Origin: an uncultured bacterium
Lineage (GTDB): Bacteria > Patescibacteriota > Minisyncoccia > Phycocordibacterales > PALSA-1337
Direction: 5' to 3'
NCBI GenBank assembly: GCA_903876465.1
Contig: CAIRAF010000065.1
Location: 1 to 48,160 of the forward strand
Length of the DNA stretch: 48,160 nucleotides
Below the pieces are notes generated by a model that had not been told where the DNA came from, made no database searches, and saw only the letters and a program-made list of their open reading frames with translations. Position numbers and translations under genes: made by a program. Below are positions 1,007 to 39,389 of the stretch, one piece after another. Each line of letters begins with the position of its first letter. The first letter of the stretch is position 1.

Positions 1007-1012
1007 AATTTT

Positions 1013-1684: not shown

Positions 1685-1693
1685 GGTTGTATA

Positions 1694-5791: not shown

Positions 5792-5804
5792 AAGCCAGAT
5801 TATA

Positions 5805-7329: not shown

Positions 7330-7426
7330 ACTCTAGCATTATTGTTTCAAAATTTGAATGATGGTTGAGTATTTACCCCTAATTCAGTATGATGTATGAA
7401 TTATCTATTAATTCAGACACATTATT

Positions 7427-17817: not shown

Positions 17818-18660
17818 ATGCAAAAGGACCAAATCATTATCAACGGAAAAGTCTTTCTCTCCACCCGCCGAGGTGCCGAGATAGCCGGATATTCTGCGGA
17901 TTATGTGGGACAACTTTGCAGGTCTGGAAAAATTGAATGTCGTAGAATTCGACGAGTTTGGTTCATCGAAAAGGATTCAATTTTGAGACACTCTGCCACC
18001 TATGCAAACGTAGCTACTAGAGCTAACGTAACTTCATTCAAACCTGAGGATTTTAAGCACTCAAGATCAAGCCTTATTTCGTCAGCATTTCCATTGCTAC
18101 TGACATCTCCACAAGGAGGCTCTGTTTCAAGTATGTCTGCTGGCATTTCTTATAACCAGCGTTCATATCAAAAAAGTACAAATTCATTCAGCACCGCAGT
18201 ATTTGCAGTGTTGTTGTTTATTGTTCTAGGTTTTTCTGTTGCCACACTATTCATGGGTCCTTTTGGACACACAAACTCTGGCACATCATCAAATCTCGTT
18301 GCTTCAGTGTCTGGCGCAGTAAATTCACTTGTTAACGATATCTTCGGTTTATTTAATCGTTCAAATACAAATTTAATTACAGATTTGAGTGTATCAGCAA
18401 ATAATTCTGATTCAGGAGCACCAACACAGGCTGGAATGGTAGTCGTGCCTTCACAAGGATCAACATCAAATAATACAAGACTTGCAAATGATATTACGAG
18501 CTCATTTTCAGATCCTGTCTCATTGAAGCAGTCTGTAGATGCAAATTCAGGAGTTATTACTCCAGTCTTCCGAACAGTGAAAGGAAAAGATTTCATGTAT
18601 GTGTTGGTACCGGTCAAAGCAGCGACTTCATCAGTAGCCACTTCTTCTCAAAATATATGA
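17818..18660 (+). CDS. Membrane-tethered helix-turn-helix protein (N-terminal HTH, one TM, S/T-rich extracytoplasmic C-terminus)
   Basis: 280-aa ORF. HTH-like FLSTRRGAEIAGYSADYVGQLCRSGKIECRRIRRVWFIEKDSI. TM segment FSTAVFAVLLFIVLGFSVATLFMG. Its stop overlaps the next start (ATGA at 18657-18660), consistent with translational coupling. Confidence 0.7.
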   Translation: MQKDQIIINGKVFLSTRRGAEIAGYSADYVGQLCRSGKIECRRIRRVWFIEKDSILRHSATYANVATRANVTSFKPEDFKHSRSSLISSAFPLLLTSPQGGSVSSMSAGISYNQRSYQKSTNSFSTAVFAVLLFIVLGFSVATLFMGPFGHTNSGTSSNLVASVSGAVNSLVNDIFGLFNRSNTNLITDLSVSANNSDSGAPTQAGMVVVPSQGSTSNNTRLANDITSSFSDPVSLKQSVDANSGVITPVFRTVKGKDFMYVLVPVKAATSSVATSSQNI

Positions 18661-19463
18661 AAATCTTGAAATCAAAAATGCAGGAATATTCAATCAGTGC
18701 GCTAGTTTTATCTTTTGTATTTGTGATTGTATTTGTATTTTGCACTTCATATCTCGTACCTTTTGCTTTGGCTCAGGTCATGTCGAGCAGTAATTTCAAA
18801 GTTCTAGATCAGAGTGTTAACTTTGCAGGAAATAATTCAAGTTCAACAAATTATCAGATGCAGGATACTGTTGGTGAAATTGCTACAGGTTTCTCATCAA
18901 GTACAAATTATTCGATTAGTGCTGGATATCAGCAGATGAATATCGTCGCAATTTCAGTTGTGCCTCCTACAAACGTCACCATGACTCCAAACTTGGGCGG
19001 TGTGACTGGCGGTACGTCCAATGGATCAACAACGTTTATCGTCACTACAGACGATACTGCTGGATATACTTCAACCATTCAAGCATCTACTTCACCTGCA
19101 CTTGTTAATACTTCATCAACAACAAATTCATTTGCTGATTATGTACCAGCTGGTTCAAATCCAGATTTTACTTTCGCATATGCAGCCACATCATCAGTCT
19201 TTGCTTGGTCAGTCCAAGGCACTGATGCTGATCAGAGATTCTTGAATAACGGTTCTGTTTGCAACAGTGGATCAACTAGTTCTATCACAACATGTTGGGA
19301 TGGACTTTCAACTGGTACAAAGACTGTTGCAGACAGAACTTCAAACAATCAACCATCTGGAACGCAATCAGTTTTGTATTTCCGTGCAGGTATCGGATCA
19401 TTACGTGTTCAACCAAATGGCTTGTATGTAGCTACGACCACTCTAACCGTCATTCCTCTCTAA
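18657..19463 (+). CDS. Secreted beta-rich protein, family member 1 (distant paralogue of 34371 and 35182)
   Basis: 268-aa ORF. N-terminal hydrophobic signal/anchor ending ..FALAQV. It shares with the two downstream paralogues the blocks V(T/V)M(T/S)PxLGG(V/I)TGGTxNG, GY(T/N)xTIQAS, a Cys pair (VCNSG...TCWDG) and LYF(R/Q)xGI...Y(V/I)(A/S)T(T/S)TLT at the C-terminus. Confidence 0.7.
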   Translation: MKILKSKMQEYSISALVLSFVFVIVFVFCTSYLVPFALAQVMSSSNFKVLDQSVNFAGNNSSSTNYQMQDTVGEIATGFSSSTNYSISAGYQQMNIVAISVVPPTNVTMTPNLGGVTGGTSNGSTTFIVTTDDTAGYTSTIQASTSPALVNTSSTTNSFADYVPAGSNPDFTFAYAATSSVFAWSVQGTDADQRFLNNGSVCNSGSTSSITTCWDGLSTGTKTVADRTSNNQPSGTQSVLYFRAGIGSLRVQPNGLYVATTTLTVIPL

Positions 19464-19470
19464 ATTATTT

Positions 19471-22400
19471 ATGAAGCATTTTATTTACATAACATTCATC
19501 CTCACAATCCTTACTGGAGGTGTTATGTACGTACATGCAGCCAGTACTTCTTTCACAACATCTCTCACAACTTACGCTTTTGATAATATTCCTCCAACAG
19601 TTCCAACAGGACTTACAGCCACTCCAATTTCTCAATCCCAAATTGATTTGAGTTGGTTACCTTCAACAGATAATAATCTTGTCGGAGGATATGTTGTTTA
19701 TCGTGACGATGGAGCAATTGCCACAACTTCAGGAACAACCTTTAGTGATACTTTGCTCTCAGCAAGTACAACTTACACATATTCAGTTCAAGCATTTGAT
19801 GGTTCATCAAATTATTCAGCAACTTCAACTTCAGTATCAACAACAACATTACCTGTACCAGTTGTAATCATTTCAACATCAACTCCACCAGTTTCGGGAG
19901 GTTCAACAAGTTCAGGTGGTTCAGCTTTTATCACTGATCTAACTGTTACTCCACACACAGTAGATAGTGTAATAAATTTCAATACTGCATCACCAGCACG
20001 CTCGACAGTATCTTGGGGATTAACTCCAGATCTCGAAGCAGGTTCTATAACAAGTATTTTCTATGACACTACACACGAGATCACGATCACCGGACTCACA
20101 GCAGACACACATTACTATGTTCGAATAAGTGTTGTTGGTGCACAAGGTGTTCAATCATCAGTCGATAGTCAATTCAACACTATCTCACTCAATCCAATAT
20201 CAATTTTGAACCCATCGAACTTTACAGCAACTCCAAAAGGTCTTGGTCAAAACGGTATCAATCTTTCATGGACAAATCCAATAGATCCACGTTTTGGGTC
20301 TGTACGTGTCGTTCGATCAACCACATTCTTCCCAAGAGACCAATATGACGGTGTGCCGGTGTATCAAGGCGCAGGACAAAATTTCTTTGATGCTTCAACT
20401 GTTCCAGGTACACGATATTATTATTCAATCTTTGCAGAAGCGACTGATGGATCTTTCTCTTCAGGAGTACTCGCACAGGCACGCATCGGTATTGTTGGAG
20501 AAATAATTCCAGCCAATAACAATCCATTTACACAAGCTCCACCAGCAAGTAACGTCAATCCTCTTATTGCAAACCTTACAATTTCAGATTTTGAATTTAT
20601 TCAGAATGGAAAATTCCTAACTCCTAATACAAACAATGTTATCTCAATTGATGGCACGAAGAATCTCACAATCAGACTTGCATATAACAAGGTTCCAGAA
20701 ATCTTAAAGACAATTGCTGTATCACTAACTGATCCAAAGGATTCTTCAAAGGCTTTCATCTTCTTGCTCCGTGCAAATGCAAACAAGTCATACTATGAAG
20801 CCAATGTCGGTTCACTCGGCGTGTCTGGAGATTTTCCACTTGCTATCAGTATTCTTGATTATCAGAATCAAAGTTTGAAACAAATTGCTGGAAGTCTTGT
20901 AGCAGCTGTAGGTGATATTGCGATTTCGAGTGATCAATTTGGTCAGCTTTCATTCTGGCTCATAATTATCTTACTCATCGTTCTGCTCGTTATCGTAGTT
21001 CGAATTCTTGCTAAGAAAAATAAAAAAGATAACTCAAAGGGAAGTGACAATGTCACCGTGGTAACTTCAGCAGTAATTGCGCTTGTTATTTTGAGTGGTG
21101 CGATGTTCTTTGGAATTCATCAAGCTTACGCTTTCAATCAACAGATTAACTATCAAGGAAAATTGGCTAATGCTTCAAATATTTCTGTTGCTAACGGCCA
21201 GTATCCTATTGTCTTTAAGTTGTATACAACATCAAGCACGACTACTCCTATTTGGACTGAAACTGATTTTGGCGCAAATCAACCAACAGTTTCTGGTGGA
21301 CTCTTTAGTATCATGCTCGGATCGACAACTCCATTTACTGGTGTTGATTTCAATCAGACTTTGTATCTCGGTGTAACTGTTGCAAGTGATACAGAAATGA
21401 CACCACGTAAAGTTATTGGCGCTGTGCCAGCTGCATTCCTTGCTGGAACCTCAACTATTGCACTTTCCGCAAATACTTTGCAGGGAATTACACCAGGGCA
21501 GTTCTTCCGTAATGATCAACAGAATGCTACTTCATCCGCTGCAACTTTCTTGTCTATTCTCCAAACAGGTGCTGGTAAAGTTGCTGAATTCTTTGCAAGT
21601 GCAGGACAGAGTGCTCTCGCTATTCTCTCAAATGGAAATGTCGGTGTAGGTTCATCAACACCAGTTGCCACACTTTCAGTTACAGGTACAAGTACTGCAG
21701 GAGTAAATCCTTTCATTGTTGCTTCTTCATCTGGAGCAACATTGCTCACTGTTCTTCAGAATGGAAATGTGGGAGTTGGTACTGCTAATCCAAAATTTCA
21801 ATTACATGTTCTTGAATCTGGCCAACCAAGTACTAACAATCCGATCGATGTAATGGCAGTGGAAGTTGGTTCGCCAAGTTCGGGTACAGCTACGGGATAT
21901 GGACCAGCGATTCTTTTTAAAGATATTGGTACAAATGTTACTAATATGGCTAGGATAGGAGCGGTATATGAACCGAATGGAACTAATAATCTCGGTGGTT
22001 TGATTTTTTCTACAAACAGCGATACTAATAACTCCCTTACTCTTCCTTCAGAGAAAATGCGTATAACCGCATTTGGCAACGTTGGAATCGGCACATCATC
22101 ACCTATAGCTTCACTAACTGTTGTTAGTTCGACTACCGCACAGATATCTTTCGTCGTCGCTTCTTCATCTGGTACTCAATTATTAACACTCTTCGGAAAT
22201 GGTAATTTTGGTCTCGGATCAACATCACTTTCAAACCTCTTTACAGTAGCCGGTAACGGATTCTTCAATGGAAATGTAACTGCAACAAATATTATTGCCA
22301 CCGGCACATTGAATGTTAGTGGTCAAACAACACTTGGTAACGCCACAATCACCAATGCATCAACAACCAACCTCGCTGTCACTGGTCTTGCAAACACAGT

Positions 22401-25400
22401 TTTGTCAGTTAATGCTCTTGGTCAAGTAGTTGCAACATCAACTGCTGGATTTGGAACAAACTACTTTAGTAATTCTGGAGCAACTACAACTAACAACTTT
22501 GCAAACCTTGCTTCAACTCTTGGTGTATTTGGAACAATTCAGGCTACAAGTACAACTGGTACAAGTACTTTTGCTGGTGCATCGATATTTACCGGTAACG
22601 TCGGTATCGGAACAACATCTCCAATGGGAGGGTTTGCTTTCCAAGGTTTCAACGCATCGACAAGTGCAACAACAAACTTTGCAGTATATGCAGGAAATGG
22701 ATACTCAAATGCTGGAACCAATGGTCCTGGAAGTAGTATCGCGTTTGTTACTGGAAGTGCAGGTAGTGGTTCAGTAGGATATGCCGGCGGAGATTTTAAT
22801 GTTACGACCGGTAGTGGTGTCTCAAGTAATGCTCCAGGACGTGGCGGTAACATTGCATTTAGTTTAGGAGCTGGTGGAATTGCCGGCCCGGCTGGTGGAG
22901 TCGGAGGAACGTTTGCAGTTGTTTCTGGTAATGGAGGTGCTTCATCTGCAACTCAACCAACTGGTGTTGGAGGAGCAGTTACTCTTACGGCAGGAAATGG
23001 TGGTGCACAAACTGGTTCAGGTTCTAGTGCTGCTGGCGGCGCATTAACGCTTACCGCAGGCAATGGTGGTAATACTACTCTTAATGGATCTCCATCAGGT
23101 ACAGGTGGAACAATTACTTTTACTGCTGGTAATGCAGGTACAGTTTCTTCATCCACATTAGCCGGTGGTAATGGCGGTAACATCATTTTAATTCCTGGTA
23201 CCGCTACTGCCACTGGCACACCTGGTTATGTCGGTATCGGTACAACATCACCATCTAATTTACTTACTGTTGCAGGTAACGGTTTCTTCAACGGCAATAT
23301 TACTGCTACAAACATTACTGCAACTGGAACTCTATCGGTTACTGGTCAGACAACACTTTCTGGTCAGACATTCCTTGTTAACGCTTCAACAACAAACTTT
23401 TCAGCTTCTGGTTTTGCTAACGTTACTGGAACAACCACAACAGGTGGTTTGAGTGTTGCTTCATTAAACGGAGTCCTCTTTGGTACAAACGGAGCAATTA
23501 CAGCTATTGCAACTTCATCACTCGGTATTCCTAACTTCTGGACTCTATCTGGCGCTACGACAACAAACACAGTAGCTAACGTCGCTTCAACTCTTGGTGT
23601 CTTCGGTTCAGTACAAGCAACTAGTACAACTGGAATTAATACATTTGCAGGAACAGTTGGCATCGGCACATCCTCACCTAGTTATCCATTTACTGTTGCA
23701 AGTCAGACAGTAACAACTGTTGTCACTGGCGGAACGAGCAATTTAAATATAGGATCTGATATTGAAGGAATAACACAAAGACAAATTTCAAGTAGTGCAA
23801 CCCAAAATTATATTACATTAAATCTTCTTGCTAGTTCACAAAATACTGTAGCTGGTGGACCAACTAATCAAACAACTTATGGTCTTTATAGTAAGGCCTT
23901 CAGTTCTAATCAGGCTTCGATAAGTAACAATACATATTATGGTGCTTATCTCGAAGCATCAGGAGCTAATGCTGGTGCAACAACTGTAACTGATTATGGT
24001 CTCTATGCAAATGCTATCAGTACTTCGACAAATGCTACGAACTACGCCGTCTATGCAAACGCTGCCAACGGAAGTCAAAACTACGGTATCTATTCTGCAG
24101 CAGGCACGAACTATTTTAATGGTAATGTCGGCATCGGTACAACATCCCCAAGTAATTTACTCACTGTCGCTGGCAACGGTTTCTTCAGCGGCAACATTAC
24201 AGCTACAAATATTACTGCAACTGGAACTCTATCGGTAACAGGTCAGACGACATTGGGAAATGCTTCGACAACCAATATCACAGTTTCAAATAATTTAAAT
24301 GTTACTTCTACCACTACAACAACAGGATTGAAGATAGCGTCACTCTCTGGAGTACTCTTCGGTACAAACGGAGTAATAACAGCAATAGCGACATCATCAC
24401 TCGGTATTCCTAACTACTGGACTCAGTCTGGTGCAACGACAACAAACACAGTGGCTAATGTCGCTTCAACTCTTGGTGTGTTTGGAACAATACAGGCGAC
24501 ATCAACTACAGGAACAAGTACTTTTGCAAGTTCCGCAATATTTAATGGAAGAGTTGGAATCGGAACAACAACACCAGCAGAAAGTTTGACTATATACAAA
24601 GGTACAACTAATGTCAGTACTTTGATTTCAGATAATGGAGTTTTATTTACAAGATCTTACGATGGATTAGCTTCAGCAGGAGTATATTATACTGGAAATA
24701 CGTTCATGACTTCAGACGGAGAAGTTATTCTATATCCAGGTAATCGTACAGCCGTGGATACTATAAATGATTCATCTGTTGGTAAGGCTGCAATCAGCGG
24801 AGCTGTAACTCTTGGTGGCGCGAATCTTCAGGTGATCGGTTCACTTGCAGTTGGCGGAACTTATGCTTCATTATTAACAACACCAGCAAATGGTGCAATC
24901 TTCCAGGGTACTGTCGGCGTTGGCACGTCATCACCATCTACCTCAAACGCTCTTGAGGTTGGCGGTAACGGATATTTTGCAGGGAATATCACTGGTGCAA
25001 ATTTGATTGCAACAAGTACTCTCACAGTCTCTGGTCAAACCACTCTCGCTAATGCTTCAACAACAAACTTGTCAGCTTCTGGTTTCCTCAAGGTCACCGG
25101 TCAAACCACTCTAGGCAATGCAACAATCACTAACGCTTCTACAACCAACCTCGCTATCACTGGTCTCAACAGTGCCATCTTGTCAGTAAATGCACTTGGT
25201 CAAGTTGTTGCAACAACTTCTGGATCTGGAACAAACTACTTCTCTAACTCTGGAGCAACGACAACACTTACTACTGGAACTAACCTTGTTGCCGCACTCT
25301 TCGCTGCTCCTTATTTCTTAGCAACTTCCACAACAGCGACTTCTAGTATTGCAGGAAACTTTAGTGTCACTGGTCCATCAATATTTGGTGGTCAGTTAAC

Positions 25401-28400
25401 AATAGGTAACGGTAATGTGAACACAGATTATGGCGTATCTATAACTAACCTAAATGCAGGATCAAGTGCTGCTGCTGATATTTCTTTTGTAAATAATTCT
25501 GGTGGGAATGCTTATGTTGGAGTTGGTTCAAGTGGAACAGCTGCGGCATATGCTTCACGTGCTTTCTTTGATACTTTCACAGGTTCAGGTACATCTATCC
25601 TATCTTCTGCATCTGGAGGAGATGTACGTTTCTATACAGCTGGTGCAGCTGCTGGAAATGAAAGAATGCGTATCGGTAATACAGGTAATGTTGGTATTGG
25701 TACGACGACAGCATCAAATTTACTTGAAGTCGCAGGTAACGGATATTTTGCTGGTAACCTCACTGCAGCAAATATCACAGCAACTGGAACACTTAATGTT
25801 ACAGGTAAAACAACTCTTGCCGCTGCTTCTACTACCGCATTGACTGTCGCCAATAATCTATTTGTAAATGGAAAAATAGGAATAAATGATCCAAACCCAG
25901 CACCATTTATTGACATAAATCAGAACGGTTCAAATCCAGGTCTAGTTATGCAGAGTACAGCACCATGTGGTACTTATGGCTCATACAACACTGGTAATGC
26001 ACGTTTTGAAGGCGGTACTGATAATGGAGGAAATATCCAATTTGAATCACAAAGAGGTACTGCTGGTTGTGCTCAAGCGGGAGCCATGTATTGGGATTGG
26101 GGTTGGGATAATGGAGGTGACTTTAATTTGAGACTTGCTATGTTTGATGATCATACTTTCCAGGTTTATGATAATGGAAGTGGTACAACGACAGTTTGGT
26201 CATTCCAGCAAAGAGGTGGAACAGTCTTCAATTATGCAACATCAACTATCTTTACTGGTGGTGGTAACGTTGGTATCGGTACGACGACACCTACAGCAAG
26301 TAACATTTTGACTGTCGCTGGTAACGAGTTTGTTAATGGAAACATTACAGCTACAAATATTACTGCAACCGGCACTCTTAATGTCACAGGTCAGACGACA
26401 CTTGGTAATGCAACAATCACTAACGCTTCTACAACCAACCTAGCTATCACTGGTCTCAACAGTACCATCTTGTCAGTAAATGCTCTTGGTCAAGTTGTAG
26501 CAACCACAACATCCGCTGGAACAAACTTCTTCAGTAACTCTGGAGCAACAACGACACTTTCTACCGGATCAAATCTTGTAGCCGCACTCTTTGCAGCACC
26601 ATACTTTATGGCGACATCGACTACAGCAACTTCAACATTTGCTGGAGCATTCGGAATTGGTTCATCAACACCTTCAGCAGCAAATATTCTTACTGTTGCT
26701 GGTAATGGATTCTTTACAGGTAACATTACAGGCGCAAACTTGATTGCAACAGGAAATCTCACCGTTTCTGGTAATTCAACACTTGCTACAACCTCTGCTA
26801 CAAGTCTTTCATCAACCGGTTCATTGACAGTTGGTCCTACAAATCTTACTGCAACAAATAATAGTTTTGCATTCGGTTATGCTCCTGGAACATCAGCTAT
26901 TACAGCAACTGGAACAGGTTCTTTAGCTTTTGGTCAAGCCGTATTTGCTGGGTCTAAAGCTTCAATAATAGCAAATAATACTGGTTCATTCGCAGGAGGT
27001 TTTGCTCTTGGTAATGGAGGTTCTCCAACAATATTATCTTCTGGAGCAGGCTCACTCGCATTTGGTAATACCGGATCAACAAGAAATATTACTTCAAGTG
27101 GAAGTGGCTCTATAGCTATGGGATTGACAACTTCAGGGAATCTTACGGCTACTGGTAATGCCTCAGTTGCTATTGGTCAAGATGTTAACGCTACTGCGAA
27201 CAATGCTTTTGCTCTAGGATCAAGCTTTACAAATGCTACTGCTTCAACTTTCCAAGTTGGTTTCTCAGCTACACCAATTCTTACAGTTACAAATACAAGT
27301 ATTGGTATTGGAACGACTTCACCATCAAATGCTTTGGAAGTCGCTGGTAACGGATATTTTACTGGTAATTTGACTGGTACAAATATTACTGCAACAGGTA
27401 CTCTTGCTGTTTTGGGTCAAACAACACTAGTAAACGCTTCAACTACAAACATTTCTGCAAGTGGTTTTGCGAATGTAACAGGAACTACAACAACCGGTGG
27501 TTTGAGTGTCGGTTCATTGAATGGATTACTTTTTGGAACTAGTGGGGCAGTCACCGCTACAACATCTATTAGTAATTCATATCTCGCCAATTCAACTATT
27601 TCTGGTATATCTCTTGGTCAAAACCTAGCTAATCTCACTGCTACAAACAGTACTCTCACATTCTCAGGTAGTTACAATGGTGGAACCGCTCAAACAGTTG
27701 GACTCAATCTTTCCAATACAAATACATGGAGTGCACTACAGACATTTAGTAATGGCATCATGTCTACAGCAAGTTCAACATTCACAAATATTACGATTGG
27801 ACAATCAACCACAACAAACGCTACTACAACTAGCCTCGCTATCACAGGTCTTTCAAATACAGTCCTCTCAGTAAATGCTCTTGGTCAAGTTGTAGCAACC
27901 ACAACATCCGCTGGAACAAACTTCTTCAGTAACTCTGGTGCAACAACAACACTTTCAACTGGATCAAATCTTGTTGCAGCTCTCTTTGCTGCTCCTTATT
28001 TTTTGGCAACTTCCACAACAGCGACTTCTAGCATTGCAGGAAACCTCACGGTTGATGGTGGTACATTTACTATTAACTCGATTGCCAATTTGGTGGGCAT
28101 TGGTACTGCCAATCCAACTGCAGCCTTTTCTGTTCAAGCAGGAACTAACACAATGCCATTCTTTGTTGCTTCTTCATCAGGCGCACAACTTCTCACTCTT
28201 CTTCAAAATGGAAACTTTGGTATTGGTACTTCAACACCAATAGCTTCATTTAGTTTCCAGGGAGTTGGACAATCAACTACGACATCTGCGAATTCATACT
28301 CGTTCGTTGTTAATGGTGGTAATGGTGTGAACGTTGCTGGTGCTGGAGGCAATGGAGGCGGCGTTCTCTTTAATACAGGTAACGGATTGACTGCTGGTAC

Positions 28401-31400: not shown

Positions 31401-34191
31401 AAGTGGTAATGGTCGTATCAGTGTGGGTCCTTCAGATAGCTTGAGTTTCTACAATGGAGGTCTTGGTAATACACGTCTAGGTTATTTCGATCCAAACGGA
31501 AACTTCTATTCAAATACAATCAATGCGACATCGACAACAGGTACAAGTACATTTGCAGGGAATTTGACTGTCGATGGCGGTACGCTTACTGTCAATTCAA
31601 TCAATAACACAGTTGGTATTAACACAACAAATTCAAATGCAACTCTTGGAATTAAGGGTTCATCTGGTACAAATCCATTTGTCATTGCTTCATCATCTGC
31701 AACAGTTGCATTCAATATGCTCACCCTCAACCAGGCTGGCGACTTTGGTATAGGTTCATCGTCACCAAGTGCAAACCTTTCAATCCAAGACAACTCTGGT
31801 CTCGCTGGAACAAATCCACTATTCATTATCGCATCTTCAACTTTGACTGGAACAGCTACAACAACACTTCTTTCACTCTTCGGTAACGGTAACTTCGCCC
31901 TTGGAACGACTTCACCATCAAACATCTTTACAGCAGTTGGTAACGGTTATTTCTCCGGTAACCTCACAGCAGCAAACATGATTGCAACGGGAACTATCAC
32001 GCAACTAGGTACAGGCACATCTACATTTGCAGGAGGTCTTAATGTCGATAGTGGAACATTTATTGTAAATCCAACAACAAATACTGTCGGTATAAATACA
32101 ACTAATTCTAACGTAACTCTCAATGTTAAAGGAACTGCCGGATTTAACCCATTTGTTATTGCTACTTCGTCAGCAACCGTAGCATTCAACATGCTTACAC
32201 TTAACCAAGCAGGAAGTTTTGGTATCGGCACATCAACACCTGCAGCTAAACTTTCAATTCAAGATAACTCAGGTTTAGCAGCAACAAATCCACTATTCGT
32301 TATCGCATCTTCAACTTTGACTGGAACAGCTACAACAACACTTCTCACACTCCTTGGTAACGGTAACTTCGCCCTTGGTTCAACCACTCCTTCAGGTATC
32401 TTTACGGCAGTCGGTAACGGATATTTCTCAGGTAGTTTGACTGCTGGTGCAATCACAGCTACAAGTACATTGACTGTTGTTGGTAATACCTCACTTCAAA
32501 ATGCTTCAACAACGAACCTTTCAGTTTCTGGATTCTTTAGACAAACCGGTACTTCTGGTACAAACCCATTTGTTATCGCTTCTTCATCAGCTACACAATT
32601 CAGCATGCTCGCTCTTCTTCAGAACGGATTCCTCGGTATAGGTTCATCAACTCCAGGTTCAAAGCTTTCTATCCAAGATAACTCTGGTGCTGCGACATCG
32701 ACTGGACTATTTACAATCGCATCATCAACTTCTGCGGGAGCTGCAACAACAACACTCTTCACAGTTACTGGTGGTGGTTATGTCGGAATTGGTACAACGA
32801 CACTCGTCTCAACATTCACAGTTGCTGGTTCAGCCTGTTTCGCTTCAACGACACAGGCCGGTGCAAAGACTGTTTGTGGTACAAGAACTGGTAACATTTA
32901 TTACGATACGGCAAACCCTGGTAACTACGACGTCGCCGAAAACTATCAGACATCTGATCCATCTATAAGTGCCGGTGACATCGTTTCTGCTGATCCATCA
33001 CGACCAAAGAATATTTTGCGAGCTACAACAGGTAGTCGTGTTCTCGGTGTTATTTCTACTCAACCTGGTGAACTTCTTGGTGGATCAAGTCCAGATATTC
33101 TCACAGCAACCATGAGACCAGTTGCTCTATCAGGACGTATTCCAGCAAAGGTTAGTACTGAAAATGGACCAATCGCTATTGGAGATTCAATTGCTTTGTC
33201 GAGTGTAGCAGGTATTGGTATGAAGGCTTCAGGTTCAGGTGAAAGAGTTGGTATCGCTCTTGAGTCATATTCAGGAAATGGTGTTGGTGTTATCGACATC
33301 TTTGCTAATCTCGGTCAGAATGTTGACCTCAATCAGTTCGCACTCGCAAGTTCAACAAATGCTTCAACAACAGTCATCGCTGATGAATTAACAGTAGCGC
33401 TTGCATCAATACAGTCATTGCAAGGTCAAACAAATAATTTGAATAATCAATTCACAGCATTCTCTTCATCTACTTCAAACTTTATTTCTTCAGTTTCCTC
33501 AACAACAGCGGCGGCTCTAGCTTCATCAACATCATTTGTTCAGACTATCGCTGATGCAGTTGTCAGTATCCTCAATGCAAGTGGTCAAGTTATAAATTCT
33601 GCAGGGAAGTGGACGGTTGGAGAAATTACAGCTCTCACTGGAACCTTCAATAAAGTTATAGCCGGTCGCGTCGAAACTCAGACCGCCGCAGTTTCGAATG
33701 GTATAGAAATGTCATCACCAAATGGACAACTCTGGTGTGTACGTATAGATAACACTGGTAACTTTGTTCGAACAACGGGATCATGTGATACATCTGCATC
33801 GACGACACCTGTAACTAATACACCTATAACTACAGGTCAAAGTAACACGGCTCCAGTAGTTACAAATAATCAGCCAACCTCAACAACCACTGTAACTTCA
33901 GCACCAGTCAATTCAACATCAACTGATAATACAAGTTCAAACACAACTAATCCAACAACCTCATCTTCGACATCTTCTACACCAGTAGTGACTTCAACTC
34001 CTGCTCCAGCACCAACAACCACAACGGCTCCAGATACTACAGTAACTCCAGCCTCAACAAGTCCAACTCCTACGACTTCAACGACACCAGCGCCAGTAGT
34101 TACTCCAGCTCCTGCTCCAACAGTAACGACAGCAGTAGCTCCAGATCCCACAACTTCAACCTCTGCAACGCCTCCAACAACATCACCGTGA
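19471..34191 (+). CDS. Giant (4,906 aa) mosaic cell-surface fibre/adhesin
   Basis: Uninterrupted 14.7-kb ORF ending TGA TGA.
- Signal peptide MKHFIYITFILTILTGGVMYVHA.
- Three FN3-like domains (e.g. PTGLTATPISQSQIDLSWLPS...YTYSVQAFD).
- Two-TM hairpin at about aa 490-554.
- About 15 copies of NVGIGT(T/S)SPxxLLxVAGNG(F/Y)FxGN(I/L)TAxNIxATGTL modules, of the kind seen in phage-tail-fibre-like proteins.
- Two Gly-rich LTAGNGG tracts.
- Two SxAxG YadA-head-like tracts.
- C-terminal globular module and an S/T/P tail. Confidence 0.9.
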   Translation: MKHFIYITFILTILTGGVMYVHAASTSFTTSLTTYAFDNIPPTVPTGLTATPISQSQIDLSWLPSTDNNLVGGYVVYRDDGAIATTSGTTFSDTLLSASTTYTYSVQAFDGSSNYSATSTSVSTTTLPVPVVIISTSTPPVSGGSTSSGGSAFITDLTVTPHTVDSVINFNTASPARSTVSWGLTPDLEAGSITSIFYDTTHEITITGLTADTHYYVRISVVGAQGVQSSVDSQFNTISLNPISILNPSNFTATPKGLGQNGINLSWTNPIDPRFGSVRVVRSTTFFPRDQYDGVPVYQGAGQNFFDASTVPGTRYYYSIFAEATDGSFSSGVLAQARIGIVGEIIPANNNPFTQAPPASNVNPLIANLTISDFEFIQNGKFLTPNTNNVISIDGTKNLTIRLAYNKVPEILKTIAVSLTDPKDSSKAFIFLLRANANKSYYEANVGSLGVSGDFPLAISILDYQNQSLKQIAGSLVAAVGDIAISSDQFGQLSFWLIIILLIVLLVIVVRILAKKNKKDNSKGSDNVTVVTSAVIALVILSGAMFFGIHQAYAFNQQINYQGKLANASNISVANGQYPIVFKLYTTSSTTTPIWTETDFGANQPTVSGGLFSIMLGSTTPFTGVDFNQTLYLGVTVASDTEMTPRKVIGAVPAAFLAGTSTIALSANTLQGITPGQFFRNDQQNATSSAATFLSILQTGAGKVAEFFASAGQSALAILSNGNVGVGSSTPVATLSVTGTSTAGVNPFIVASSSGATLLTVLQNGNVGVGTANPKFQLHVLESGQPSTNNPIDVMAVEVGSPSSGTATGYGPAILFKDIGTNVTNMARIGAVYEPNGTNNLGGLIFSTNSDTNNSLTLPSEKMRITAFGNVGIGTSSPIASLTVVSSTTAQISFVVASSSGTQLLTLFGNGNFGLGSTSLSNLFTVAGNGFFNGNVTATNIIATGTLNVSGQTTLGNATITNASTTNLAVTGLANTVLSVNALGQVVATSTAGFGTNYFSNSGATTTNNFANLASTLGVFGTIQATSTTGTSTFAGASIFTGNVGIGTTSPMGGFAFQGFNASTSATTNFAVYAGNGYSNAGTNGPGSSIAFVTGSAGSGSVGYAGGDFNVTTGSGVSSNAPGRGGNIAFSLGAGGIAGPAGGVGGTFAVVSGNGGASSATQPTGVGGAVTLTAGNGGAQTGSGSSAAGGALTLTAGNGGNTTLNGSPSGTGGTITFTAGNAGTVSSSTLAGGNGGNIILIPGTATATGTPGYVGIGTTSPSNLLTVAGNGFFNGNITATNITATGTLSVTGQTTLSGQTFLVNASTTNFSASGFANVTGTTTTGGLSVASLNGVLFGTNGAITAIATSSLGIPNFWTLSGATTTNTVANVASTLGVFGSVQATSTTGINTFAGTVGIGTSSPSYPFTVASQTVTTVVTGGTSNLNIGSDIEGITQRQISSSATQNYITLNLLASSQNTVAGGPTNQTTYGLYSKAFSSNQASISNNTYYGAYLEASGANAGATTVTDYGLYANAISTSTNATNYAVYANAANGSQNYGIYSAAGTNYFNGNVGIGTTSPSNLLTVAGNGFFSGNITATNITATGTLSVTGQTTLGNASTTNITVSNNLNVTSTTTTTGLKIASLSGVLFGTNGVITAIATSSLGIPNYWTQSGATTTNTVANVASTLGVFGTIQATSTTGTSTFASSAIFNGRVGIGTTTPAESLTIYKGTTNVSTLISDNGVLFTRSYDGLASAGVYYTGNTFMTSDGEVILYPGNRTAVDTINDSSVGKAAISGAVTLGGANLQVIGSLAVGGTYASLLTTPANGAIFQGTVGVGTSSPSTSNALEVGGNGYFAGNITGANLIATSTLTVSGQTTLANASTTNLSASGFLKVTGQTTLGNATITNASTTNLAITGLNSAILSVNALGQVVATTSGSGTNYFSNSGATTTLTTGTNLVAALFAAPYFLATSTTATSSIAGNFSVTGPSIFGGQLTIGNGNVNTDYGVSITNLNAGSSAAADISFVNNSGGNAYVGVGSSGTAAAYASRAFFDTFTGSGTSILSSASGGDVRFYTAGAAAGNERMRIGNTGNVGIGTTTASNLLEVAGNGYFAGNLTAANITATGTLNVTGKTTLAAASTTALTVANNLFVNGKIGINDPNPAPFIDINQNGSNPGLVMQSTAPCGTYGSYNTGNARFEGGTDNGGNIQFESQRGTAGCAQAGAMYWDWGWDNGGDFNLRLAMFDDHTFQVYDNGSGTTTVWSFQQRGGTVFNYATSTIFTGGGNVGIGTTTPTASNILTVAGNEFVNGNITATNITATGTLNVTGQTTLGNATITNASTTNLAITGLNSTILSVNALGQVVATTTSAGTNFFSNSGATTTLSTGSNLVAALFAAPYFMATSTTATSTFAGAFGIGSSTPSAANILTVAGNGFFTGNITGANLIATGNLTVSGNSTLATTSATSLSSTGSLTVGPTNLTATNNSFAFGYAPGTSAITATGTGSLAFGQAVFAGSKASIIANNTGSFAGGFALGNGGSPTILSSGAGSLAFGNTGSTRNITSSGSGSIAMGLTTSGNLTATGNASVAIGQDVNATANNAFALGSSFTNATASTFQVGFSATPILTVTNTSIGIGTTSPSNALEVAGNGYFTGNLTGTNITATGTLAVLGQTTLVNASTTNISASGFANVTGTTTTGGLSVGSLNGLLFGTSGAVTATTSISNSYLANSTISGISLGQNLANLTATNSTLTFSGSYNGGTAQTVGLNLSNTNTWSALQTFSNGIMSTASSTFTNITIGQSTTTNATTTSLAITGLSNTVLSVNALGQVVATTTSAGTNFFSNSGATTTLSTGSNLVAALFAAPYFLATSTTATSSIAGNLTVDGGTFTINSIANLVGIGTANPTAAFSVQAGTNTMPFFVASSSGAQLLTLLQNGNFGIGTSTPIASFSFQGVGQSTTTSANSYSFVVNGGNGVNVAGAGGNGGGVLFNTGNGLTAGTSGTGGDFAVNTGNGGGVNRGGNMTFTLGNGGGTSSNGGAFSLTAGNGGGAAGPPSGPGGAVTITAGNGGAQGGGSSGALAGVLTLNGGNAGSVTSGGVNGGNIILMPGLGSGTGLRGLVGIGSSTPSAMLSVLAATNTIPFVVASSSGAQLLTLLQNGNFGIGTSSPSNMLEVAGNGYFAGNITATNITATGTLNVTGQTTLGNANITNSTTTNATTTNLAITGLNSVILSVNALGQVVATTSGSGTNYFSNSGATTTLSTGSNLVAALFAAPYFLATSSTATSNFGGNATVGTTSLVSASNNSFALGDIYSANAGSTYSVVSSGGGSFAGGAVQTPAGTATSTILSSGPGSFAFGISVGVSGGTSKITSSGAGSVALGYSSGTTAGTGLISASGNGSFAGGYMSNTGSGTASTTASGIGAFAWGTGVGAYQTLSTAFGSGYVNNTANSFMVGYSAIPTLTVNSTSVGIGTTSPSNTLSVAGNSFINGNETATNITATGTLTVSGLTTLGNASTTSFTSTGPTFLATGGGNVGIGTAAPAYPFSVQGSIVDDLSFMQNTNVSGWSTMVLANSNATIKTSFGIGNASASTFANTAFFDVFAGGAPFVLATNDTERMRIENGGNIDIGTTSSSNLLSVGGNGFFTGNLTAANMIATGTLIVSGQTTLGKTIMSNSTTTNATTTNLAITGLNSVILSVNALGQVVATTSGSGTNYFSNSGATTTLSTGSNLVAALFAAPYFTATSTTATSTFAGNVFVGPTNPNFYPASPLVVTTNTNNYGQFVVQNLNSGNNASGDLIVGGDKMTDTSYYGDLGCNSSTFNQVGQTILPAFDCYLYSSDSNLDIGTASTTGPSNINFFTGGTLAANNRMTILTNGNVGIGTTSPSSLNLLTVAGNGFFNGSLTAGTLNAASTTGTSTIAGNLVVGPSSGTTGFMMDANGNVGIGTSTLSNILEVAGNGYFAGNLTGANITATGTLAAISNIALGTSTYSFVDGIAMDYIQAASGNGRISVGPSDSLSFYNGGLGNTRLGYFDPNGNFYSNTINATSTTGTSTFAGNLTVDGGTLTVNSINNTVGINTTNSNATLGIKGSSGTNPFVIASSSATVAFNMLTLNQAGDFGIGSSSPSANLSIQDNSGLAGTNPLFIIASSTLTGTATTTLLSLFGNGNFALGTTSPSNIFTAVGNGYFSGNLTAANMIATGTITQLGTGTSTFAGGLNVDSGTFIVNPTTNTVGINTTNSNVTLNVKGTAGFNPFVIATSSATVAFNMLTLNQAGSFGIGTSTPAAKLSIQDNSGLAATNPLFVIASSTLTGTATTTLLTLLGNGNFALGSTTPSGIFTAVGNGYFSGSLTAGAITATSTLTVVGNTSLQNASTTNLSVSGFFRQTGTSGTNPFVIASSSATQFSMLALLQNGFLGIGSSTPGSKLSIQDNSGAATSTGLFTIASSTSAGAATTTLFTVTGGGYVGIGTTTLVSTFTVAGSACFASTTQAGAKTVCGTRTGNIYYDTANPGNYDVAENYQTSDPSISAGDIVSADPSRPKNILRATTGSRVLGVISTQPGELLGGSSPDILTATMRPVALSGRIPAKVSTENGPIAIGDSIALSSVAGIGMKASGSGERVGIALESYSGNGVGVIDIFANLGQNVDLNQFALASSTNASTTVIADELTVALASIQSLQGQTNNLNNQFTAFSSSTSNFISSVSSTTAAALASSTSFVQTIADAVVSILNASGQVINSAGKWTVGEITALTGTFNKVIAGRVETQTAAVSNGIEMSSPNGQLWCVRIDNTGNFVRTTGSCDTSASTTPVTNTPITTGQSNTAPVVTNNQPTSTTTVTSAPVNSTSTDNTSSNTTNPTTSSSTSSTPVVTSTPAPAPTTTTAPDTTVTPASTSPTPTTSTTPAPVVTPAPAPTVTTAVAPDPTTSTSATPPTTSP
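22270..30660 (+). repeat. Dispersed intragenic repeat family (six copies of the ...ILSVNALGQVVAT...SNSGATTT... module plus flanking VAGNGFF modules)
   Basis: Core copies start near 22402, 25180, 26470, 27866, 29090 and 30478. Copies 3 and 4 share a 71-nt identical run (tcagtaaatgctcttggtcaagttgtagcaaccacaacatccgctggaacaaacttcttcagtaactctgg). Confidence 0.85.
23230..24560 (+). repeat. Direct duplication with ~897-nt period inside the giant gene
   Basis: 23230-23354 versus 24127-24251 are about 89% identical at DNA level by eye, including the identical run attactgcaactggaactctatcggt. The following GVLFGTNG..ITAIATSSLGIPN(F/Y)W.. blocks are also duplicated. Confidence 0.8.
31551..32810 (+). repeat. 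Tandem ~471-nt (157-aa) coding repeat, about 2.7 copies
   Basis: Units begin near 31551, 32022 and about 32490. Protein-level repeat: TFAG.L.VD.GT..VN...NTVGINTTNSN.TL..KG..G.NPFVIA.SSATVAFNMLTLNQAG.FGIG.S.P.A.LSIQDNSGLA.TNPLF.IASSTLTGTATTTLL.L.GNGNFALG.T.PS.IFTAVGNGYFSG.LTA. Confidence 0.8.
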
Positions 34192-34370
34192 TGAAATTGG
34201 AAGTAGTAGAGTGAGAAGTAGAACGATTAATTAAAATTAATAACAATTAATAAAAATATATGAGAAAAAATAAGGGGTATATAGATGTTTAACGTAAGGA
34301 ATAGGTGTGGTATTATTATCAGTAATTAAGTTTAAACAATTAGAAACGAGTTCGTATTTTATTAAAACGT

Positions 34371-35054: not shown

Positions 35055-35163
35055 TCTAGTGAAAAACTGTGGATAAGTAGAGTGAAAATTACATTAAAAA
35101 TTGAGCAGAATATGATACAATTTAAGCAATAAAGGACCAGTCAAAATAGATTAATATAGACCC

Positions 35164-35181
35164 AATAATAATAATAATAAT
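35164..35181 (+). repeat. (AAT)6 microsatellite abutting the start codon of 35182
   Basis: aataataataataataat lies immediately 5' of the ATG at 35182. Confidence 0.9.
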
Positions 35182-35877: not shown

Positions 35878-35887
35878 TTAAACTACA

Positions 35888-36955: not shown

Positions 36956-37013
36956 TATAATAGAGGGGAAGTATTAATAACTTTATTAATTAATAATATA
37001 GGTAAATTTATTT

Positions 37014-39389
37014 ATGGAGACATCACAACACAACACACGTTCGTTAGAGACATGGGCATTTCGTATTTTTGGAGCAACAGTATTTCTTAGTCCAATCATC
37101 TTTTTGCCAGTGAGTTATATACCACTTGAATTGATCAAGACATATCTCATTGTCCTCGGTGTTATGATTTCTCTTGGTTTGTACACCATCATTTTCTATA
37201 AAGAAAAAAGGATACCAGTACCCCCAAGAACTATCACGTATCCTACGATACTCGTTCTTATAGGTGCAATTATTTCTGCACTTGTATCAAGTTCATTTTC
37301 AAACTCTTTCTCTGGAATAGGTACTGAGTTATACACTGTCGGTTTTCTACTAGTACTGTTCGCGGGTTCATATGTATCGTATCTCATAGTCTCACGACGA
37401 CCAGAACGAGCTGTCATCTTGTATACTTATTTGGCTAGTTCATTCCTTGTTCTTGCTCTCATACAGATTGCTAGATTTATTTTAGGTGCTAAAGCGTTTA
37501 CACTCGGTGTTTTGCCTTCTCTGACTTCGACAATACTTGGTGGATGGTATGCACTTTCGGCTTATGCTTTTATTGTTCTTCTTATCATAATAATTGCACT
37601 TATATATTTGCCATTATCTAGTAGGATGAAAGCGATTTATAGTCTTGTTGGAGTACTGGCTTTTGTTGCCATGTTCTTCATCAATGATCCTCGTATTTGG
37701 ACAATATCTGCAATTGTATTTCTTGGCTACGCTCTTTACAGTACTTTTTCAAAGTCTCTCGATTCTCGTTCAATGTCAGCTTGGCTAAAGCGTATATCGT
37801 GGGTGCCTGTCATTGTCTTCATTGTTTCGGCTTTGTTTGTATGGAAAGGGGATTCAATTACAGCACCTGTAACAGCTAAGATCGGTGCTAGTTATTCAGA
37901 ATTACGTTTACCATGGCAAATGACTCTCGATATCGGTGCCAATGTCCTTGAAAATAATCCATTATTTGGTATTGGACCAAATAATTTTACTCAAAGTTAT
38001 CTTACATACAAACCACTCCTCATCAATACAAGTAGTGTCTGGAGTACGGAATTCTCTTCTGGTTCAGGATTTTTGACGACGATTTTTGCAACCGAAGGTT
38101 TTGCCGGTATAGCTACATGGATTTTATTCCTCATCCTTATAGGTGTTGGCGGTGTTAAAGTCTTTCGTCGTTTGCCAACAGATCAGGTTACTAGGTTCGT
38201 CACAGTTTCTTCATATCTAGCATTGGTATCAGGACTCATCTTACTTCTTGTCTCAGTACAGCCTCACGCTATCTTGTTTATAATATTTATTCTTCTGGGT
38301 ATATTCTTTGGTGTTGCGACAACACACAATCTGTTACCAAATTCAGATATAGTATTGAATAAAAATATCAAGAATATTATCTATCCTGCAATTATCGGTG
38401 TATTTGTCCTTGCAGGTATTCTTATTTACACAAAAAATGTGGTTGCTGTTATTGATTATACAAAAGGTGGCTCTGTTTTGAATTCAACGGGGAATGCTGT
38501 AGCCGCTGATAAATACCTGGCCAGCGCCCTCTCATTAAATAATAGTGATATCTTCTGGCGTGGCCGAGCACAGGTTAGTCTCCAAGCAATACAGAATGTT
38601 GCCAATTCCGTCGGTACTTCTACAGACCCAGTTATCATTGCAAATGCAACTTCATCTATAAATGCTCTTCTCGGCCAAGCTCGTAAATACGCTGAAAGTG
38701 CAATTGCGCATGATCCAACCAGTTATTACAACTACATCTCTCTTGCTCGAGTTCTTGACCTGGCAGTCAAATTCAATGTTCCAAATGCCTACAAAGACGC
38801 TCTTGCTAATTACACAGAAGCAGTCAAATACGATCCATATGACCCTGCACTTTATCTAGAAGTTGCACAAGTTCAGGCTTCTAATAATGATATGACTTCT
38901 GCTATTCAGACAATCAATACAGCTTTGCGACTTAAGATAAATTATAGTGATGCTTATGCGCTCCTATTGCAGATATATGTTGCTCAAAATGATACAAAGA
39001 ATGCTCTCGCAACTGCTGAAGCCTCAGTTCAAGTTGATCCAAATAATCCAGTTACACTCTATCAACTTGGTGTCTTGCTCTATACTACGAACGATTATGC
39101 GAATGCGATTACTGTTCTAGAGCGTGCAGTTAAATTGTCACCAAACTATGCAAATGCAGAGTACTTCCTAGGATTATCATATGCCCGCCAAAATAGGACG
39201 GCTGATGCTCTTGCTCAATTCCAAAACATAGAAAAGAGCAATCCAAATAATCAGGATGTAGCTTATATCATCAGTGCTCTCCAGGCCGGCGAATCACTCT
39301 TTGTACCACCTCAAGCGGCAAAAGTGGCTAATACTAGCGCTAAAATGCGTCCAGCAAGTCTTATTAAGTCGAAAGGCCCAATCCAGTAG
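37014..39389 (+). CDS. O-antigen ligase-like (Wzy_C-type) polytopic membrane protein with C-terminal TPR repeats (paralogue of 7427-9739)
   Basis: 791-aa ORF. Many TM segments. Loop motif NPLFGIGPNNF. C-terminal TPR-like repeats (YNYISLARVLD..., AEYFLGLSYARQNRTADALAQFQ...). Confidence 0.7.
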   Translation: METSQHNTRSLETWAFRIFGATVFLSPIIFLPVSYIPLELIKTYLIVLGVMISLGLYTIIFYKEKRIPVPPRTITYPTILVLIGAIISALVSSSFSNSFSGIGTELYTVGFLLVLFAGSYVSYLIVSRRPERAVILYTYLASSFLVLALIQIARFILGAKAFTLGVLPSLTSTILGGWYALSAYAFIVLLIIIIALIYLPLSSRMKAIYSLVGVLAFVAMFFINDPRIWTISAIVFLGYALYSTFSKSLDSRSMSAWLKRISWVPVIVFIVSALFVWKGDSITAPVTAKIGASYSELRLPWQMTLDIGANVLENNPLFGIGPNNFTQSYLTYKPLLINTSSVWSTEFSSGSGFLTTIFATEGFAGIATWILFLILIGVGGVKVFRRLPTDQVTRFVTVSSYLALVSGLILLLVSVQPHAILFIIFILLGIFFGVATTHNLLPNSDIVLNKNIKNIIYPAIIGVFVLAGILIYTKNVVAVIDYTKGGSVLNSTGNAVAADKYLASALSLNNSDIFWRGRAQVSLQAIQNVANSVGTSTDPVIIANATSSINALLGQARKYAESAIAHDPTSYYNYISLARVLDLAVKFNVPNAYKDALANYTEAVKYDPYDPALYLEVAQVQASNNDMTSAIQTINTALRLKINYSDAYALLLQIYVAQNDTKNALATAEASVQVDPNNPVTLYQLGVLLYTTNDYANAITVLERAVKLSPNYANAEYFLGLSYARQNRTADALAQFQNIEKSNPNNQDVAYIISALQAGESLFVPPQAAKVANTSAKMRPASLIKSKGPIQ

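Follow-up and report, generated by a model that had tools for sequence, protein, structure and literature searches.

The locus considered here occupies positions 17818 to 39389 of a 48,160-nt stretch of contig CAIRAF010000065.1, from an uncultured bacterium of the candidate phyla radiation (CPR, Patescibacteria). The whole stretch is referred to as the window, and all coordinates are positions within it. Seven open reading frames (ORFs) follow one another on the + strand: g1 (17818-18660, 280 residues), g2 (18657-19463, 268 residues), the giant g3 (19471-34191, 4,906 residues), g4 (34371-35054, 227 residues), g5 (35182-35877, 231 residues), g6 (35888-36955, 355 residues) and g7 (37014-39389, 791 residues). 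According to the parts proposed for their products we also refer to them as R (g1), T (g2), F and G (the two units of g3), P1 and P2 (g4 and g5, pilins), C (g6, chaperone) and O (g7), and together they probably encode a pilus and a giant fibre. An earlier sequence-only reading had described seven co-directional, tightly spaced genes, and we reproduced all of them, including the ATGA overlap of g1 and g2 at 18657 and the subsequent gaps of 7, 179, 127, 10 and 58 nt. In public gene calls g2 begins seven codons later, at the second Met (18678 versus 18657; 261 residues), and with that start the overlap with g1 would vanish. No Shine-Dalgarno-like sequence was visible 5' of the start codons of g1 to g7. 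Promoter and terminator scans gave nothing above the shuffled expectation, and a terminator-like site was absent between 34000 and 40000, so that it is spacing and synteny that point to an operon.

With the g6 family profile, 156 loci, all with close relatives of g6, were retrieved from a set of genomes that has a single representative for each GTDB species, and the counts that follow refer to the 80 that were kept. The commonest gene order was R-P-C-T-F-G. Where the upstream sequence was long enough (71 loci), a pilin gene lies directly 5' of the chaperone gene in 68 cases; T occurs in 74/80, F in 68/80 and the N-terminal domain of G in 43/80. All 31 loci that span at least 18 kb contain P; 29 of them contain T, and 27 an ORF of at least 1,000 residues. 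An R-type gene occurs in 50/80 loci and directly precedes the first pilin in 35 of the 61 with enough upstream sequence. Most loci have one pilin gene (73/80) and four have two; the pilin ORFs inspected, 228-253 residues from stop to stop, are similar in size to g4 and g5. Beyond R, P, C, T, F, G and O no further conserved gene was found in the related loci, and no match to the usher family in the locus or in the flanking genes scanned. The order in the window, R-T-FG-P-P-C-O, is thus a rearranged copy with a duplicated pilin. The neighbourhood is strongly conserved, which supports the earlier proposal of a cell-surface fibre or adhesin assembly locus in a CPR bacterium. Source-named homologues of the locus proteins come from metagenome-assembled genomes (MAGs) of Patescibacteria/Paceibacteria. 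About 38 of the loci (L010, L014, L016 and others) are labelled 'uncultured Candidatus Saccharibacteria'; their chaperones share 39-59% identity with g6, as do those of the Paceibacteria-labelled loci, and these organism labels look generic.

Small secreted proteins and their probable membrane-anchored partner

The tandem genes g4 and g5 encode single-domain proteins with a signal peptide, an N-terminal strand and an immunoglobulin (Ig)-like pilin domain, and g5 is a duplicate of g4 with 73% identity (BLASTP, E 2e-110). The C-terminal part of g2 is 37% identical to g4 across 167 residues (E 2e-24), and the pilin family profile (A3) aligned with that of the g2 family (A4) with a probability of 100 and an E-value of 1.7e-48 in hhalign. 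Judged from these alignments, the paralogy of g2, g4 and g5 is far beyond chance. The blocks M.P.LGG.TGGT.NG, GY..TIQAS and LYF..GI...Y..T.TLT and the Cys pair, to which the sequence-only reading had drawn attention, are all invariant columns of the three-way alignment. In P1 the Cys pair of the Ig-like domain is Cys156-Cys169, and the mature protein begins with the strand QSQFTISQTT (residues 35-50, nt 34473-34520), the putative donor strand. The mature pilin N-terminus is conserved, with the consensus ..DQFT(V/I)(S/T)Q(T)(I/V)T.E. The pilin pre-sequences (34371-34470 and 35182-35281) contain an invariant Glu-Pro (E27 and P28 in g4) inside a conserved FxxxEPAxSxGA stretch immediately before the mature N-terminus; a plain Sec signal peptide would not usually contain such a pair, which may point to processing at a dedicated site.

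We found 207 homologues of g4, none with a Pfam domain, and every source-named one is a hypothetical protein from a Patescibacteria MAG. The AlphaFold2 model of g4, built from 66 sequences, has a predicted local distance difference test (pLDDT) score of 88.9. Its top PDB match in Foldseek is the CFA/I subunit CfaB (E 6e-4), and the further matches include the TasA fibre (8aur, match number 5; E 8.5e-3, TM-score 0.29), PapE, Pyrodictium cannulae, FimA, FimG, FimF and PapA as well as the pilin domains of PapG and CupB6. The list is led by donor-strand-assembled fibre subunits and is coherent despite TM-scores of 0.3-0.5. A donor-strand, pilin-like fold, which the earlier reading had named as an alternative, therefore fits the small proteins best. 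That reading had leaned towards WxL proteins and had also considered TasA/camelysin-like fibres, neither of which is borne out. No match to the WxL family (PF13731) was obtained for g2, g4, g5 or 69 members of the P and T families, nor to Peptidase_M73 (at E up to 1), Fimbrial models or SCPU, the last included at its suggestion. The W-x-L motif is absent from the small proteins and LPxTG from all seven locus proteins, no WxL chain occurs among the 50 fold matches listed for g4, and searches of PDB sequences with g2, g4 and the family profiles A3 and A4 gave no match. Membership of the WxL, TasA/Peptidase_M73, SCPU and Fimbrial families is ruled out at the sequence level by these absent matches, and the small proteins are pilin-like rather than members of the WxL-domain family.

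The product of g6 begins with a hydrophobic signal, followed by two Ig-like domains, the first of DUF916 type, and a C-terminal membrane helix (residues 315-353 by hydropathy, ~325-348 in the model), a topology that agrees with the one first proposed for it. Searched alone, g6 matches PF06030 (DUF916/WxLIP_PGBD) with an E-value of 1.1e-4 and 22.6 bits, just under the gathering score of 27.3. The same model is matched by 57 of 61 g6 family members (best E 3.6e-7), and the family profile matches the WxL-interacting protein (WxLIP) EfmWxLIP1 of Enterococcus faecium (9i25_C, 9i1y_A) at E 1.9e-9. In the AlphaFold2 model (pLDDT 86.6) the two Ig-like domains and the C-terminal helix are recovered. 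Foldseek ranks WxLIP first (9i1y/9i25, E 8e-12); after it come the chaperones CfaA (E 1e-9), CsuC, Caf1M, DraB (E 1e-9 to 1e-6 for these four) and CupB2, with RbmA in between. DUF3324, the second domain of WxLIP, gave no Pfam match in g6, and the Foldseek alignment to 9i1y_A extends over 279 columns and both domains. From the profile comparisons, homology of g6 with the Enterococcus WxLIP/DUF916 proteins is demonstrable, in agreement with the relationship that its layout had suggested, and from its model g6 is best read as a membrane-anchored pilus chaperone with two Ig domains of the PapD/CfaA kind. With CfaB as the best pilin for g4 and CfaA as the best chaperone for g6, both proteins find their counterparts in partners of one known system. 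A low-confidence loop at residues ~178-196 of g6 is followed by the conserved strand ITRIGTLFFVRV, a candidate for the complementing strand. One g6 homologue is labelled DUF916-containing in public records, where the named module proteins are otherwise 'hypothetical'.

In the third small protein, g2, the signal peptide is followed by an N-terminal hairpin module of the 'S-x-N-Y' type (residues ~36-100, nt 18762-18956). The remainder (residues ~100-268) is a pilin-type domain, homologous to g4 and g5, and the N-terminal strand motif of the pilins is missing from g2. This protein matches the NCBIfam model NF058579 for the CPR-type pilus protein PamT with E 5e-12 and 45.7 bits, against an equivalog cut-off of 240 bits, and the model is matched by 59 of 61 g2 family members. 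A full-library search with the g2 family profile retrieved 1,977 representative proteins at E <=1e-3, the top 150 of which were all strong g2-type proteins. Many of these relatives (444-2,187 residues) have an adhesin part N-terminal to the T module, such as LamG (468 residues), LamG with fn3 repeats (1,205 residues) or a beta-helix repeat protein (2,187 residues). Based on sequence, g2 is best read as a PamT-like tip subunit, and the adhesin-plus-T layout of its relatives would correspond to that of the tip adhesins FimH and PapG. Two g2-family members are matched by the NCBIfam model 'TafC family fimbrial protein' of the haloarchaeal Tat-fimbriae (E 1.9e-10), a match that may stem from the added (LamG-type) domain. 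Haloarchaeal Tat-fimbriae have also been reported to assemble through strand donation.

The giant reading frame

The ORF of 4,906 residues exists as the sequence-only reading had it, but it is a fusion of an fn3/membrane-anchor unit, F, with the fibre proper, G, and in many relatives the two are separate genes. F (19471..21129, + strand) opens with a signal peptide (residues 1-23) and a short N-terminal strand of its own (ASTSFTTSLTT), after which come fn3/Ig domains (Pfam fn3 E 3.9e-10, Pur_ac_phosph_N E 1.2e-4) and a membrane helix (residues 488-518). Beyond the helix lie a basic loop on the cytoplasmic side and a second signal peptide (residues 527-553; ...HQAYA|FNQQINYQGKL). With this arrangement of residues 1-553 (19471-21129), a membrane-anchored fn3 protein would arise from one polypeptide together with a secreted fibre. 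Translation could also start internally, at an in-frame GTG (residue 531). Among the relatives, F is a separate gene of 458 residues in L001, where G has at least 3,727 residues, and F and G are fused in L003 and L006. Similar read-through fusions join C and T in P0344, P0334 and about 30 other representatives of 500-610 residues, as well as at 9857-11596 of L025. In P0344 and P0334 the membrane helix of the chaperone is followed by the signal peptide of the tip protein, the same junction logic as between F and G, and both types of fusion preserve membrane topology.

A position-specific scoring matrix (PSSM) was made from the 16-residue mature pilin N-terminus and slid along the whole F, C, T and G proteins. 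The best-scoring window was the mature N-terminus in 58 of 67 F proteins, compared with 5.1 expected from position alone, and the controls were near expectation (C, 17/78 with 8.1 expected; T, 13/72 with 10.2; G, 0/34 with 1.5). A loose regular expression for the N-terminal strand of F, which found it in 11-16 of 69 proteins, was too strict, and the PSSM was used instead. Since the mature N-terminus of the relatives carries the pilin strand motif, F is likely a membrane anchor. By analogy with the layout reported for PamR, the fn3 anchor of the Pam pilus, it is a candidate for the pilus terminator.

G (21130..34191, + strand; residues 554-4906) starts with a conserved N-terminal domain at INYQGKL (nt 21130-~21570), the mature N-terminus in relatives being A|..N..INYQGKLTN, and continues with about 3,900 residues of G/T/S/N-rich repeats (GNVGIGT...VAGNGFF.GN.TATNITATGTL). 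Its C-terminal region contains, in this order, a domain resembling phi29 gp12, a Q/N/S-rich stretch, a small Cys-pair domain and a Thr/Pro-rich tail. The first of these is a cleavage/autochaperone-like domain (residues ~4470-4615, nt 32878-33315). The C-terminal family profile (A6) matches residues 675-745 of the phi29 pre-neck appendage protein gp12 (6qz9_A) at E 3.8e-6 as well as 3gqh (E 1.1e-4) and 3suc (E 3.7e-4), while the Pfam match to Peptidase_G2 reaches only E 0.042. The solved gp12 autochaperone chain (3gqh) starts at the residue that aligns with D4487 of G (…NPGNY|DVAENY…). Cleavage of G at this point, if it occurs, would remove the Q/N/S-rich stretch, the Cys-pair domain and the Thr/Pro-rich tail from the mature fibre. 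No pilin domain was detected in the giant with the P, T or C profiles.

Regulators, g7 and neighbouring genes

The first gene of the locus, g1, encodes a protein with a cytoplasmic helix-turn-helix (HTH) domain, one membrane helix (residues 121-150 by hydropathy) and an extracellular C-terminal motif, GVITPVFR..KG.DF.YVLVPV, which it has in common with the L001 and L006 proteins. Its match to Pfam HTH_17 (E 9e-4) lies below the cut-off, and together with the membrane helix it agrees with the membrane-tethered HTH protein of the sequence-only reading. We regard g1 as a candidate regulator or sensor of the locus. A gene for a MerR/HTH_17-type regulator (17207..17470, - strand; Pfam MerR E 5e-10, HTH_17 E 4.5e-8) is divergent from the locus and may be a second regulator of the module. 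L001, L006 and L007 have a gene of this type, encoding 80-82 residues, on the stretch from GatB to the module; the gene at this position in L003 encodes 69 residues and matches MerR weakly.

At the other end, g7 encodes a polytopic membrane protein with C-terminal TPR repeats. Both features had been predicted and stand, while the likeness to O-antigen ligases that had been attached to them was not detectable: no Wzy_C/O-antigen-ligase match was obtained with the membrane part alone or with the whole of g7, for which the 25 of 29 families listed include TPR families only, and the ligase reading is thus not supported. The similarity of g7 to the Wzy_C/TPR protein encoded elsewhere in the window (7427-9739) is confined to the TPR part, with none in the membrane part. 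An O-type gene occurs in 8/80 related loci, always after G, and in 2/10 loci with enough downstream sequence, and the case for g7 as a member of the module is weak. A gene for a small RRM_1 RNA-binding protein (39492-39743, + strand) lies 3' of g7, and in one relative such a gene likewise lies 3' of the TPR protein.

A surface-glycan cluster at 68-9739 includes genes for a GT2 glycosyltransferase, methyltransferases, a flippase-like protein, a GDP-mannose dehydratase and an epimerase, and it adjoins the gene for the genuine Wzy_C and TPR protein. As a speculation, glycosylation of the Ser/Thr-rich pilins and of the fibre tail might be the task of this cluster and not of g7.

Comparison with known systems and proposed assembly

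Pam pili have been described in a preprint on the Saccharimonadia parasite Candidatus Mycosynbacter amalyticus, where the filaments were seen by electron cryomicroscopy (Troman et al. 2026; doi 10.64898/2026.03.03.709456). They are built by donor-strand exchange from the two-domain pilins PamA and PamB (55.3 and 38.7 kDa); the major pilins have a nine-strand N-terminal sandwich, a linker donor strand and a truncated Ig C-terminal domain, and PamA is reported to be O-glycosylated. The chaperones PamC and PamD are PapD-like and keep a C-terminal transmembrane (TM) helix, the tip pilin PamT is without a donor strand, PamR, the anchor, is of the fn3/TM type and bears an N-terminal strand, and the operon is accompanied by a tail-fibre-like gene. 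WxL, DUF916 and Paceibacteria go unmentioned (Troman et al. 2026; doi 10.64898/2026.03.03.709456).

The locus in the window is probably a smaller, unannotated relative of this system. Both are restricted to CPR bacteria and have Sec-exported, Ig-like pilins with a Cys pair and no usher; the pilins of Pam assemble through donor strands, and those of the locus are proposed to do so. A PapD-like chaperone with a C-terminal membrane helix is found in both, g6 matching PamC and PamD in architecture and fold. The tip subunit PamT and its candidate counterpart g2 have an N-terminal module in common (g2 against the PamT model, ~60 residues), and both systems have an fn3 anchor with an N-terminal strand and a membrane helix (F against PamR, in architecture only) and a co-localised tail-fibre-like protein. 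The locus differs from Pam in having one chaperone instead of two, in the gene order R-P-C-T-F-G, in that no ATP synthase genes lie nearby and in its Paceibacteria/Parcubacteria lineage. Since the preprint describes a chaperone-assisted donor-strand pilus of CPR bacteria beside a tail-fibre-like protein, and g2 matches the NCBIfam model for PamT, the term 'undescribed' that the sequence-only reading had used for the locus is outdated. Similarities also extend to the chaperone-usher pili of class 5 (CFA/I) and of the archaic type (Csu). These include the paired fold matches of g4 to CfaB and of g6 to CfaA, CsuC, Caf1M and DraB, a tip adhesin with its binding domain N-terminal to the pilin domain, and an N-terminal extension as the presumed donor strand. 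Unlike those pili, the present system has no outer membrane or usher, a membrane-anchored chaperone, an fn3/TM anchor and no detectable sequence similarity to them.

With a probability of roughly two in three, we read the locus as encoding a chaperone-assisted, usher-less donor-strand-exchange pilus of a monoderm, Paceibacteria-type CPR bacterium, together with a giant trimeric tail-fibre-like adhesin. Several observations weigh against this. The Foldseek TM-scores are modest (0.3-0.55) and the E-value of g4 is only 6e-4. Gene content, homologies, fold matches, synteny and the common strand motif were observed directly, whereas strand exchange, polarity and polymerisation, like anchoring and attachment to a host, are deduced from single-chain models and from sequence. 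The strand of F in the window itself (STSFTTSLTT) is weaker than in the relatives, and the PSSM misses it in the 4,906-residue ORF. The pilins are single-domain proteins (227 and 231 residues, ~20 kDa when mature), whereas PamA and PamB have two domains. The likeness to PamA-E and PamR is drawn from their descriptions, the Pam entries 25PZ and 25QA were not among the matches of the PDB sequence and fold searches, and g4, g5 and g6 match no Pam-named NCBIfam model. The score of g2 is far under the PamT cut-off, its similarity to PamT covers residues 36-100 only (a module of ~60 residues, E 1.2e-9), and its pilin domain tested alone against the PamT model gave no match. Finally, among solved structures the nearest homologue of g6 comes from the WxL system, for which, to our knowledge, no polymer has been reported.

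This last point leads to a complex of the WxL/Csc type that does not polymerise, in which C would dock P as the 'short WxL' and T as the 'long WxL' protein by strand complementation and no filament would form. The closest relative of g6 in both sequence and structure is indeed an Enterococcus WxLIP, which likewise has two Ig domains and a C-terminal helix, and the relatives of T carry N-terminal adhesin domains. We know of no WxL protein that polymerises. The usual WxL cluster of one WxLIP with a short and a long WxL protein mirrors C, P and T, that is, one anchored protein, one small subunit and one subunit with N-terminal binding domains (PMC10599100). In AlphaFold2 predictions a strand of WxLIP fills a gap in the beta-sandwich of the WxL protein (PMC10599100), much as a pilus chaperone lends a strand to the incomplete sandwich of its subunit. 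The small proteins of the locus, however, have neither the WxL domain nor its motifs, an LPxTG (CscD-type) partner is missing, and DUF3324 was not detected by Pfam in g6. The best matches of g4 are polymerising pilins, filaments are proven for the related Pam system of CPR bacteria, and the conserved N-terminal strand common to P and the membrane-anchored F is hard to explain without strand exchange from subunit to subunit. We therefore consider a WxL-type complex unlikely. Still less support can be found for a TasA/camelysin-like matrix fibre, in which the small proteins would assemble on their own by donor strands and g6 would be an unrelated surface protein rather than a dedicated chaperone. 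TasA fibres do assemble by strand donation in a monoderm (Bacillus), and 8aur is among the first five fold matches of g4. The absence of Peptidase_M73 from the 69 family members, the TM-score of 0.29, the adjacency of P and C in nearly all loci, the matches of C to pilus chaperones and the lack of any signal-peptidase or TapA-type match in the seven locus proteins make such a fibre very improbable.

The locus might also comprise two independent neighbouring systems, a small pilus of P, C and T and a giant fibre whose fn3/TM partner F anchors G. F and G are always adjacent and often fused, G is without a pilin domain, and in one relative the P-C pair lies ~8 kb from the giant gene with housekeeping genes between them. 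We nevertheless think this rather doubtful, and somewhat more so than a WxL-type complex, since in most of the 80 loci P-C is followed by T-F-G, with order and strand preserved, F bears a pilin-type N-terminal strand, and a consistent co-localisation with a tail-fibre-like protein was also found for Pam (Troman et al. 2026; doi 10.64898/2026.03.03.709456). The least probable origin is a prophage or a phage-derived tail-fibre module. G does resemble phage fibres such as phi29 gp12 and those with Peptidase_G2, in its tail-fibre-like repeats that form a long shaft, its conserved N-terminal domain and variable body, and its autochaperone domain, with a profile that aligns (E 3.8e-6) across the autochaperone start, where 3gqh begins. 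Unlike these, it is a chromosomal cellular gene of ~4,350 residues with its own signal peptide, fused to an anchor. PHROG gave no match for g2, the giant, g4 or g6, and the locus is flanked in the window by genes of the core chromosome (SecA, MurB, Obg, GatB, TGT and aldolase), the Obg/GatB context being found again around the locus in distant relatives. In view of these absent matches and this context we reject an origin from a phage.

For the usher-less pilus that we favour, the following assembly can be proposed. All components would be exported by Sec, and the membrane-anchored C would capture each exported subunit by inserting a beta-strand into its incomplete Ig fold, a step suggested by the homology to WxLIP and the fold match to chaperones of the CfaA/PapD type. 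T, with its pilin domain devoid of the pilin-type N-terminal strand and with lectin or adhesin domains in its relatives, would start the fibre. P (g4/g5) would then polymerise, the mature N-terminal QFTISQT of each subunit replacing the chaperone strand in the preceding one. F, which has both a pilin-type strand and a membrane helix, would end the fibre and tie it to the membrane, as the shared strand motif and the analogy to PamR suggest. G would be a separate secreted fibre with an N-terminal attachment domain, a variable repetitive shaft and a C-terminal phage-type autochaperone that is probably cleaved off after trimerisation; it could dock on T, on F or elsewhere. R, and perhaps also the product of the divergent MerR gene, probably regulate the locus. 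The whole apparatus likely serves contact with, or attachment to, a host cell.

CPR bacteria (Patescibacteria) account for a large part of bacterial diversity, and every member in culture lives attached to other cells. For Paceibacteria, the largest CPR class, we know of no established means of attachment. Roles are here assigned to a conserved module of six genes, for a regulator, a pilin, a chaperone, a tip subunit, an anchor and a giant fibre, present in at least 156 species-representative genomes. This would extend Pam-type pili beyond Saccharimonadia and Microgenomatia, in a stripped-down version with single-domain pilins. Natural candidates for determinants of host specificity are the modular tip family, in which an adhesin is joined to a pilin module, and the giant fibres with their variability. 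The CPR chaperone is also linked to the WxLIP/DUF916 proteins of enterococci, lactobacilli and listeriae, which could change the view of WxL clusters; we found this link neither in the Pam preprint nor in the top-ranked papers of a literature search combining DUF916 and CPR terms. Tentatively, and with the odds somewhat against it, we suggest that the Paceibacteria module may be a minimal form of an ancient, monoderm-wide usher-less pathway that unites the Pam pili of CPR bacteria with the WxL/Csc systems of Firmicutes through a DUF916-type chaperone, and that also mounts or co-deploys a giant tail-fibre-like adhesin for host attachment. On this view, WxL clusters would be related to a true pilus system, perhaps as degenerate or short-fibre forms, and hundreds of uncultured Paceibacteria species would carry an unannotated pilus.

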